Shown: positions 413 to 2,460 of the stretch, in pieces
Layout of the letters: each line of letters begins with the position of its first letter
How positions within the stretch are numbered: the first letter of the stretch is position 1
Assembly (NCBI GenBank): GCA_964016885.1
Contig: OZ024740.1
Coordinates: 161,696,001-161,760,000, forward strand
Direction: 5' to 3'
From: Eledone cirrhosa
Taxonomy: Eukaryota
DNA: 64,000 nt
Translations under genes and position numbers: made by a program
Notes under the pieces: generated by a model
What the model saw: the letters and a program-made list of their open reading frames with translations, nothing else
The model's database searches: none
Told to the model about the DNA's origin: nothing

Positions 413-630
413 TAGGAACGAGTAGGACCCCGACGGCTGAGCTCAAGCTGTTTCGACGGCTAATTCTGGACTAAATTTAGTCCAGAATTAGCCCCAGAAT
501 TAGCCGTCGAAACGGCTTGAGCTCAGCCGTCGGGTTCCTACTCGTTCCTATTACCCACTCTACTACCCTAAGTATTGAGTACTTTGGTGCGCTATGGTCC
601 ACCTGGTTCCTTACCACATTTCCTCCGTTA
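413..630 (+). mobile_element. Fold-back mini-element family A, copy 1 (PLE-dependent, in (TA)n)
   Basis: Inverted arms 413-~476 and ~477-550 centred on GGACTAAATTTAGTCC, then a ~80-bp tail ending CCTCCGTTA. (TA)n on both sides. Contains GAAACGGC-ttgagctca-GCCGTC. Confidence 0.75.
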
Positions 631-664
631 TATATATATATATATATATATATATATATATATA

Positions 665-834
665 TAGGAAAATGTATGACCCCGACGACAGAGCTCAAGC
701 CGTTTCGACGTCGAAACGGCTTGAGCTCTGCCGTCGGGGTCATACATTTTACTATTACCCACTCTACTACCCTAAGTATTGAGTACTCTGGTGCGTTATG
801 GTCCATCTGGTTCCCTACCACAACTCCTTCGTTA
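665..834 (+). mobile_element. Fold-back mini-element family A, copy 2
   Basis: Arms centred on TTTCGACGTCGAAA, with the same tail as 413-630. Flanked by (TA)n. Confidence 0.75.
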
Positions 835-844
835 TATATGTATA

Positions 845-2043
845 TATATATATATATTATTTTCGATAATGTCAGTATTGCATGTCATAATTCTCGATTA
901 TCATTGGTTCATAGGTTTCAAACGACTCTGCCCACCTCAACGACTCCAAAATTAAATTAATATGCATAATGCCAATGAGGGAGTGAGGGGGGAGAGTAAA
1001 AAACAGAGAGGCAAAGTTGGATACACTATGTATATGTGTCAGTGTAGAGACATGTGTGTGATGTGTGTGGAAATAAGAAGAGAAGGAAAGCAATAACTAT
1101 TAACATGTGTGCGTGTGTATGTGTACGTGCGCGTATATTTATGTGTACGTGCGCGTATATTTATGTGTGTGTGCGTGCGTGCAGCGTTCCACAGAAAGTA
1201 AAAACTATCAACATGTGTGAGTGTGTGCGGGTGTGTAAGTGCACGGGTGCGTGTGTAAGTTTGCGTGCGTGTACGCGTAACCATGCGTGTATGTGTGTGT
1301 ACGTGCGGCGTTCCACAATCGCCACGCAGTTTATCTGTCTGTGTGCCTGTCTGTCAGGGAGTAAATAGGGACCTTTTTTTTACATTGACGGACATCTTTT
1401 ATATTTATTATTGTGTCATTTTTTTACAATTGCTCGAAATGAATACTGATATGAAAAGCAATTCGACTTTATCAAACAGTGACCTACAGCGGCGACGGCA
1501 TGCAGCCTGGAATGAAGAAAAGCGGGCTGAACAGCGCCATCGGAACGCCGAACTTCAGAGGCGAAGACGTGCCGCCATGAATGACGAGGAGCTGGCTGAA
1601 CAACGCCAATGAAACACTGGAGCCAAGCAGCGACGGCGTGCTGCGATGGTTGAAGACGAACTGGCTGAGCATCATCTTTTATATTAATTATCTATATCTA
1701 CATATAATATAAAAGATTGGAACTTCCATCATCCTTTTGAGAAACGTGGAACAACCACGTCTATGCAATGATACACGTTTTACAGTCAGGCAGAAGATGA
1801 ACCATCTCCTAGAGGTCACTATTCTAGGTGGGAACACCTAGAATTGTTCATATACTATGCACAAACGGTACAACGAAGAATGTGGTATATCTGGAAGATT
1901 TCTTTTACTGTTTTTTGTATCACAGAGACACCACGGATTCACCTCATACTGTAACCAGACAAACATCCAATACAGTCATTTTCTCTATTACCAGTCTTCT
2001 CTTATCATCTGTTTACCCGGGCGAAGCTGGGTACGTCAGCTAG
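845..2043 (+). mobile_element. Internally deleted (non-autonomous) Helitron
   Basis: 3' hairpin TACCCGGGCGAAGCTGGGTA then CTAG|T at 2040-2044. PIF1 helicase remnant and N-terminal R/E-rich repeats lie inside. The 5' boundary is uncertain (within the TA run). Confidence 0.75.
1439..1900 (+). pseudogene. Helitron Rep/Hel remnants
   Basis: 1439-1675 gives repeats LQRRRHAAWNEEKRAEQR / LQRRRRAAMNDEELAEQR. 1713-1826 gives KIGTSIILLRNVEQPRLCNDTRFTVRQKMNHLLEVTIL (PIF1 motif). 1828 onward gives VGTPRIVHILCTNGTTKNVVYLE (Helitron C-terminus). Confidence 0.8.
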
Positions 2044-2291
2044 TATATATAAATCAAGAAAGAAGAGTGACACGGTTTGCTATATAATAAGGGCTTTAAT
2101 CAAATTGCTGCCAATTGTTTCTCTGAACTGGTAGGTCTAGAGATCGCTACCCGCCTGTGGACTACCTATAACAATAATCTGTTATCCCGTATATATATAT
2201 ATATATATATGTATGTATGTATGTATATATATATATATATATATATATATATATATATATATATATATATATATATATATATATATATATA

Positions 2292-2460
2292 TAGGAACCA
2301 GTAAGACCCCGACAGCTGAGCTCAAGCCGTTAGCCGTCGAAACGGCTTGAGCTCAGCTGTCGGGGTCTTACTGGTTCCTATTACCCACTCTACTACCTCA
2401 AGTATTGAGTACTTTGGTGCGTTATGGTCCACCTGGTTCCTTACCACATTTCCTTCGTTA
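2292..2460 (+). mobile_element. Fold-back mini-element family A, copy 3
   Basis: Inverted arms plus the same tail as copy 1. Flanked by (TA)n. Confidence 0.75.

Follow-up and report, generated by a model that had tools for sequence, protein, structure and literature searches.

Palindromic copies of a Hydra-clade Penelope-like element in Eledone cirrhosa and their probable origin from two cDNAs joined head to head

Short palindromic copies in the window

The window analysed here is a 64,000-nt stretch of the Eledone cirrhosa genome (assembly GCA_964016885.1, contig OZ024740.1, positions 161,696,001 to 161,760,000). It holds five copies of a short repeat, starting at 413, 665, 2292, 15172 and 17423, and one tail stub. 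All lie where a first-pass annotation had placed them, and each copy is, as described there, an inverted repeat with a tail of about 80 nt set in (TA)n. Element positions are numbered relative to the cut predicted for the ribozyme, GCCGTC^GGGGT, with +1 being the first base past the cut.

Copy 1, of the CCTACTCG subfamily, has a tail-less inverted arm at 413-476 on the reverse strand (+20 to -45) and a tail-bearing arm at 475-630 on the forward strand (-45 to +99; tail at 552-630). The arms overlap by 2 nt (AT), a 12-nt duplication lies at 494-505, the cut is predicted at 531/532, and the RNA start proposed below, A(-41), would fall at 479. The forward-strand copy 2 at 665-834 (CATACATT type) consists of an inverted arm (665-710) and a tail arm (709-834), each with its end near -26/-27, and has the predicted cut at 735/736. 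Copy 3, also on the forward strand at 2292-2460, has an inverted arm at 2292-2331 (+20 to -21) and a tail arm at 2330-2460 (-32 to +99) and is of the CTTACTGG type, the subfamily with intact ORFs. The remaining copies are on the reverse strand. Copy 4 at 15172-15374 (CATACTTT type) has a tail arm at 15310-15172 and a tail-less arm at 15316-15374 (-40 to +20); the tail arm begins at A(-41), and the G preceding it (15311) is absent from the parent. Copy 5 at 17423-17579 (CCTACTCG type) has a tail arm at 17563-17423 (-43 to +99), a 3-nt insert and a very short inverted arm at 17567-17579 (-42 to -30), which starts from an internal TA. Inverted arms beginning at about -30 at an internal TA, as here and in L098, possibly mark a minor priming site. 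The stub at 35102-35139 (+62 to +99) lies between TA repeats without a partner arm.

The 3' half of a hammerhead (GAAACGGC-loop-GCCGTC) is present in the copies and CTGANGA is absent from them, as the annotation had it; the copies thus carry a half-ribozyme from which the 5' core strand is missing. The symmetry centre had been placed just 5' of GAAAC, and centres do cluster there family-wide, but the inverted arm of the copy at 2292 stops inside GAAAC (-21). The long central hairpin quoted for the copies is present at 413 and 15172 and cut short at 17423, but is not found at 665 or 2292. At least three arm types (AGTAGGA, AGTAAGA and [T/A]GTATGA) were found instead of the two proposed.

Several other features were recorded. 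Copies of the family often adjoin one another within one TA run (window 630-665; also L006, L020 and L088), which agrees with the flanking microsatellite having been a target more than once. TA-flanked repeats with canonical-core hammerhead-like motifs at 15578 (reverse strand) and 205 (forward strand), and in the flanks of L021, L029 and L084, are probably the ends of further Penelope-like families. The decayed remains of part of an RT, from another Hydra-like Penelope element, lie at 30225-30507 on the forward strand (37% identical to the ORF of this family, E 2e-9). An inverted repeat at 57237-58523, with 555-nt arms that are 99% complementary and 177 nt apart and a spacer that repeats arm sequence, was unrelated to the family using blast. 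The tail word TATTGAGTACT (window 575-585) resembles, by eye, a word near the 3' end of a Hydra sequence, namely the entry printed directly before Hydra-1_Obim in the supplement of Craig et al. (PMC8557442), and is possibly a shared protein-binding motif.

The parent element and its hammerhead

Judged by their sequence, the palindromes of the window are non-coding pieces of a Hydra-clade Penelope-like element (PLE), a young family with tens of thousands of copies. A 22-nt tail pattern gave 43,063 exact matches in the 3.0-Gb genome versus 0 for the reversed control. Among the 30 best matches, five were uninverted and continued upstream, one of them into an RT-endonuclease ORF that is truncated at its 5' end and has, on its 5' side, an inverted arm of 730 nt with a tail. 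The parent occurs as near-identical tandem arrays with a unit of 3,542 nt and an intact ORF of 717-719 aa (ATG at +191), and in 327 copies the tail runs on into the 5' UTR. Because the tail continues into the 5' UTR of the next unit, a palindromic mini-copy (mini) corresponds to about -41 to +99 across a tandem-unit junction.

The single parent ORF encodes RT and, at its C-terminal end, an endonuclease of the GIY-YIG kind (YRDD and VIY..YIG motifs), which bears out the annotation's derivation of the copies from a PLE. Motifs matching the Hydra clade are RLRWR, SDKTG, CNCPDRSIC, PCNLCSEE and NKKDELVTACKH. Full-length relatives of the ORF numbered 2,018 at E<=1e-30 among 8,000 scored, and a relative, P0054 (41% identical), reads near-identically by eye to Hydra-2_Amil as printed in the PMC8557442 supplement. 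These motifs and this likeness by eye point to placement in the Hydra clade; Naiad and Nematis were also considered and were dropped on protein motifs. Pfam gave no match for the whole 717-719 aa ORF and a GIY-YIG match below threshold (E 0.021) for an ORF fragment. The layout known from endonuclease-bearing (EN+) PLEs, with partial or full tandems, an inverted 5'-truncated copy and a one-sided tail, was seen, and the target is (TA)n, as in the Hydra clade. Two unlinked long copies, L304 and L147, have nearly identical 5' truncations (-1829 and -1831); others are truncated at -1765 and -1950. In L304, a 55-nt piece of the ORF is repeated about 65 times at 2171-5742, at the 5' end of the array and ahead of the inverted arm, and looks like the result of repeated slippage in reverse transcription.

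Fixed outer ends, inverted arms and TA flanks would also suit a TA-targeting miniature DNA transposon (MITE) with terminal inverted repeats, and target duplications are unreadable in (TA)n. However, the two ends are unequal (+20 vs +99), the centres vary and the same sequence forms the junction of tandem units in an RT-encoding element. Because the parent encodes RT, the MITE reading is refuted, and its probability is negligible.

The parent reads ACCCC-YTGANAA-G..stem II..C-GAAA-stem III-GTC^GGGGT, with a U3:A8 variant of the core. The annotation had predicted a parent hammerhead with CTGANGA; the hammerhead exists, but with the core YTGANAA. The cores of 53 long arms comprise 21 TTGANAA, 21 CTGAGAA and 0 CTGANGA, the remainder being damaged or unread. 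This count is the test that carries weight, because a search with the CTGANGA parent pattern at a gap of 4-34 nt, too short for the true spacing of 50 nt, gave 45 matches, 20 of which were inspected and were junction or flank by-products and not a parent. An older subfamily (174 exact matches) has a TTGATAA core and a 9-bp stem II in which both strands have changed together relative to the young subfamilies. When 31 copies were aligned, 91.6% of 651 cells paired and three stem II pairs had changed on both sides, compensations that reflect few subfamily splits; U3-A8 was present in 27 of the 31 rows, and position 7 varied. A conserved type I hammerhead fold in the parent, with three helices around UGA..A / GAAA / UH, is therefore a well-supported prediction, and U3-A8 is a known, active core variant in published hammerheads (PMC4209133; PMC3088659). 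In the subfamily to which copies 1 and 5 (413 and 17423) belong, a C3/A8 mismatch probably impairs the predicted ribozyme.

Folded without constraints, one parent of the CTGAGAA type did not form a hammerhead (z -0.32); the TTGAGAA type does fold as one. Rfam returned 0 matches at the gathering score in the 64-kb window and TA-repeat noise only for one parent arm. Copies beginning exactly at +1 numbered 52, versus 16, 23 and 20 at neighbouring positions (an excess of about 2.5-fold that is in part microhomology), and two further counts gave no clear peak of ends at the ribozyme cut.

The annotation had taken the central palindrome for a long stem II of the parent. Uninverted parents lack the perfect central hairpin and hold its 3' arm only, so that the hairpin of the minis is created by the inversion and is not the parent's stem II.

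Arm ends, junctions and the extra G

Breakpoints were read in 190 tail-anchored copies, comprising 97 first-listed copies and 93 of 100 rows taken across two chromosomes, from which seven rows identical over 120 nt were dropped (three long, four in the stop zone); the parse leaves about 5 mis-stops. Of the 228 arms that reach -35, 200 stop in loop II, between -35 and -46 (91/114 tail arms and 109/114 inverted arms), a stop zone common to all four subfamily groups. Plotted relative to stem II, the breakpoints depart strongly from a random distribution and fall 5' of GAAAC. On the outer side, the inverted arm mostly ends at +20 with TA following (exact in 76/143) and the tail arm at +99; loose TA ends at +99 and +20 were also present in the contigs of six runs. 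The junctions between arms are varied, with 57 types among 75 copies, and among 143 arm pairs 57 have microhomology, 64 have inserts and 22 are blunt. This variety and the common zone in four subfamily groups uphold the annotation's view of repeated independent events, and a single master mini is ruled out by the number of junction types.

The route proposed in the annotation was that RT stalls at hammerhead stem II and that the cDNA snaps back and copies itself, an inverted arm thereby replacing the 5' core. The stop zone does adjoin stem II, which in the fold predicted for the young subfamily continues weakly into it, and self-priming has been proposed for PLE junction palindromes (PMC3846280). 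The two arms are also usually of the same subfamily (identical at diagnostic sites in 60/88 pairs, most others being one change apart), but arms of different subfamilies are combined in about 4/88 pairs (L148, L162, L207 and L241). Few stops fall at the base of the stem (3' strand, -24 to -28; 14/335 arms), the place at which stalling should occur; the wall is at about -41 to -46 and carries an extra G, which is also found at -41 where a TA-joined arm lacks a second arm. Often the inverted arm outreaches the tail arm, by 3 nt or more in 64 of the 143 pairs and by 20 nt or more in 32, and in L061 and L306 the tail-less arm exceeds the tail arm by kilobases. Self-priming cannot produce pairs in which the inverted arm has sequence that the tail arm lacks; later deletions could be the cause of some short tail arms. 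Long arms have long partners (11 of the 13 with a resolved partner, p 1e-6 vs independent stops; the partner was unresolved in 42/60 rows), a pattern that suits two cDNAs copied to a shared template end and not independent stalling. The fixed outer end at +20 is likewise unexplained by stalling at stem II and self-copying, and this route, which we consider improbable, is largely refuted.

A(-41) sits inside TTAGT/TCAGT, which we take to be an initiator-like word and which keeps its place at -41 in the old subfamily as in the young ones, the rest of their loops being different. In the parent, the base before AGTCC is T in 44, C in 6 and G in 0 of the 50 readable among the 53 long arms. In TA-joined arms ending at -41, the preceding base is G in 63, T in 21, A in 9 and C in 7 of the first 100 of 443 matches, tallied by eye, versus G in 1/29 in the control at -38 (Fisher p 3e-9). 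Both arms carry G at 317 loci and A at 5 loci. The genome-wide count of this base was 6,014 G, 997 A, 18,871 T and 5,110 C, the G count including joins to an arm ending in CTG. In L1, an extra G marks capped, complete 5' ends (PMC4859970; PMC11702581), and by analogy we infer that A(-41) is a capped RNA start and the extra G a copy of the cap. Against one sharp start, 44 of the 200 arms in the zone extend 1-5 nt beyond -41, and 117 TA-joined arms end at -44/-45, with G in 1/100 of those; the latter ends may reflect a second start, added bases or microhomology. A TATA-like word 29-31 nt upstream was dropped as a TATA box since it is not kept in the old subfamily.

The end at -41 might instead be made after transcription, by RNA processing or a protein-bound block, with the G being a non-templated addition by RT. 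Run-off RTs can add bases, the ends scatter from -35 to -46, and the sequence at -41 resembles a 3' splice site. However, the G is specific to -41 and rare at -38 and -45 (1/29 and 1/100), the arms retain the AG that splicing would remove, and the initiator-like word is conserved. We therefore regard an end made after transcription as very improbable.

The reading that we favour, with a probability of about 0.78, is that the palindromes are formed from two cDNAs primed on nicked (TA)n strands, at +99 and at +20, which run off at the capped A(-41) and are joined head to head. The element protein would nick both (TA)n strands; priming would occur at RNA +99 and +20, both next to UA and in the RNA's 5' copy, on opposite target strands; both cDNAs would run off the capped RNA start inside loop II; and host repair would end-join them with trimming, microhomology or inserts. 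An RNA start in loop II, downstream of the 5' core, would thus leave the minis with the 3' ribozyme half only. For an anole PLE, the protein is described as cleaving and extending both DNA strands, with two RNA start sites bounding the tail (PMC11167929). Five elements that hold 5' UTR or ORF sequence past the tail (L172, L173, L176, L178 and L199) show a start at -30 to -44 followed by a jump back to between -38 and -44, the pattern that run-off at the 5' end and renewed engagement of the enzyme would give.

The same five elements bear on the source of the RNA. The capped -41 end could come mainly from short RNAs of minis, or from 3' ends reading into flanks, so that minis regenerate minis with a new centre rebuilt in each round, an explanation that differs from joining of two cDNAs copied from parent RNA in RNA source only. 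Every mini retains all that lies downstream of -41 together with both start sites, an internal promoter of D. virilis Penelope is active in the 3' pseudo-LTR (PMC2377424), and no full-length copy from capped RNA has been seen, none of the post-tail copies of at least 1.6 kb beginning at -41. Against this, the five elements hold element sequence beyond the tail; therefore at least they derive from complete-element RNA, and we judge it unlikely that minis are the main source.

Under joining of two run-off cDNAs, long copies would require a template that continues upstream of -41, whether through a 3' repeat left uncut, a multimer, a circle or strand transfer. The starts of the arrays examined are internal and scattered, which, together with the lack of a long copy from -41, fits rolling synthesis on a ribozyme-made circle. 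Such rolling synthesis has reportedly been proposed earlier for PLEs. A further, speculative step, which we hold to be possible but well short of even odds, is that the loop II start leaves a whole hammerhead in the 3' repeat of the RNA only and so acts as a switch. Hammerhead cutting would then remove the 3' priming sites, capped linear RNA would yield palindromic minis only, and full-length and perfect tandem copies would arise from ribozyme-made circles or multimers.

Significance and comparison with known systems

The results bear on how the inverted repeats and one-sided tails of PLEs arise. For the inverted repeats, self-priming on an antisense template was the earlier proposal (PMC3846280), and the sole in vitro PLE system stops short of integration, as far as its report describes (PMC11167929). 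The family provides natural events by the tens of thousands, with ends that can be read to the base, as well as young copies with intact ORFs. It points to priming on both target strands, from two fixed sites, and to run-off from a capped RNA 5' end. The placement of the start inside the ribozyme would make the role of PLE hammerheads directly testable. Joining of two run-off cDNAs would also explain a large class of short palindromes of the E. cirrhosa genome that could be misannotated as MITEs or microRNA hairpins. If the loop II start does act as a switch, the genome records a transcription start and the two-strand, two-site priming behind PLE inverted repeats and tails. The clade, TA targeting, the inverted-plus-tail layout, two start sites and the U3-A8 core are already known singly; in the openly accessible literature searched, no report was found that places an RNA start in loop II or describes minis made palindromic by twin run-off.

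The parent resembles the Hydra-clade PLEs with a C-terminal endonuclease described by Craig et al. 2021 (PMC8557442) in having RWR for RWK, DKT, a CxCx5C linker, no CCHH, GIY and YIG without a two-cysteine motif between them, CxxC and CxH around conserved E and N, (TA)n targets, a tandem and inverted arrangement and a one-sided tail. It differs from them, as they are described there, in its longer unit (3.54 kb vs under 3 kb), its tail of about 80 nt, the dominance of palindromic minis and its hammerhead, which has a U3:A8 core and a loop of about 33 nt where theirs is typically canonical. As U3:A8 is a known variant core, Hydra membership is not excluded by it. The family is not Hydra-1_Obim, as both protein and ribozyme differ from that entry of the PMC8557442 supplement, and its motifs were not found in the text of this supplement, where line breaks and cut runs weaken such a search.

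The anole Poseidon element PAc (Frangieh et al. 2024, PMC11167929) likewise has two internal RT start sites bounding the tail and an AT-rich target of which both strands are extended. It belongs to another clade, its tail is 30-40 nt and inside the ORF, and the accessible text of that report describes no head-to-head minis or stop at an RNA 5' end. The type I fold with a G10.1-C11.1 pair is shared with PLE hammerheads (Cervera and de la Pena 2014, PMC4209133; PMC3088659), the U3-A8 variant with Schistosoma Cercyon elements (PMC4209133; PMC3088659), and the many solitary or closely inverted copies with PLE hammerheads as well (PMC4209133). Unlike those presented in PMC4209133, the hammerhead here has a stable 5-bp stem III, a C3/A8 mismatch in one young subfamily and a long loop II that would hold the transcription start.

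The non-LTR retrozymes (bioRxiv 10.64898/2026.07.22.740005) are likewise non-autonomous and derived from PLE pseudo-LTRs. They are described there as direct tandems of whole ribozymes, whereas the minis are inverted and hold half a ribozyme, and identity of the minis with them was ruled out on these grounds. In L1 twin priming, as reported in PMC4859970 and PMC11702581, a second cDNA is also primed from the other target end, and the inverted junction has microhomology or inserts and the 5' end an extra G. The two cDNAs of L1 cover consecutive parts of the RNA (PMC4859970, PMC11702581), whereas those proposed here would both copy one 5' segment, each from its own fixed start, so that, unlike in L1, the product would be a palindrome.
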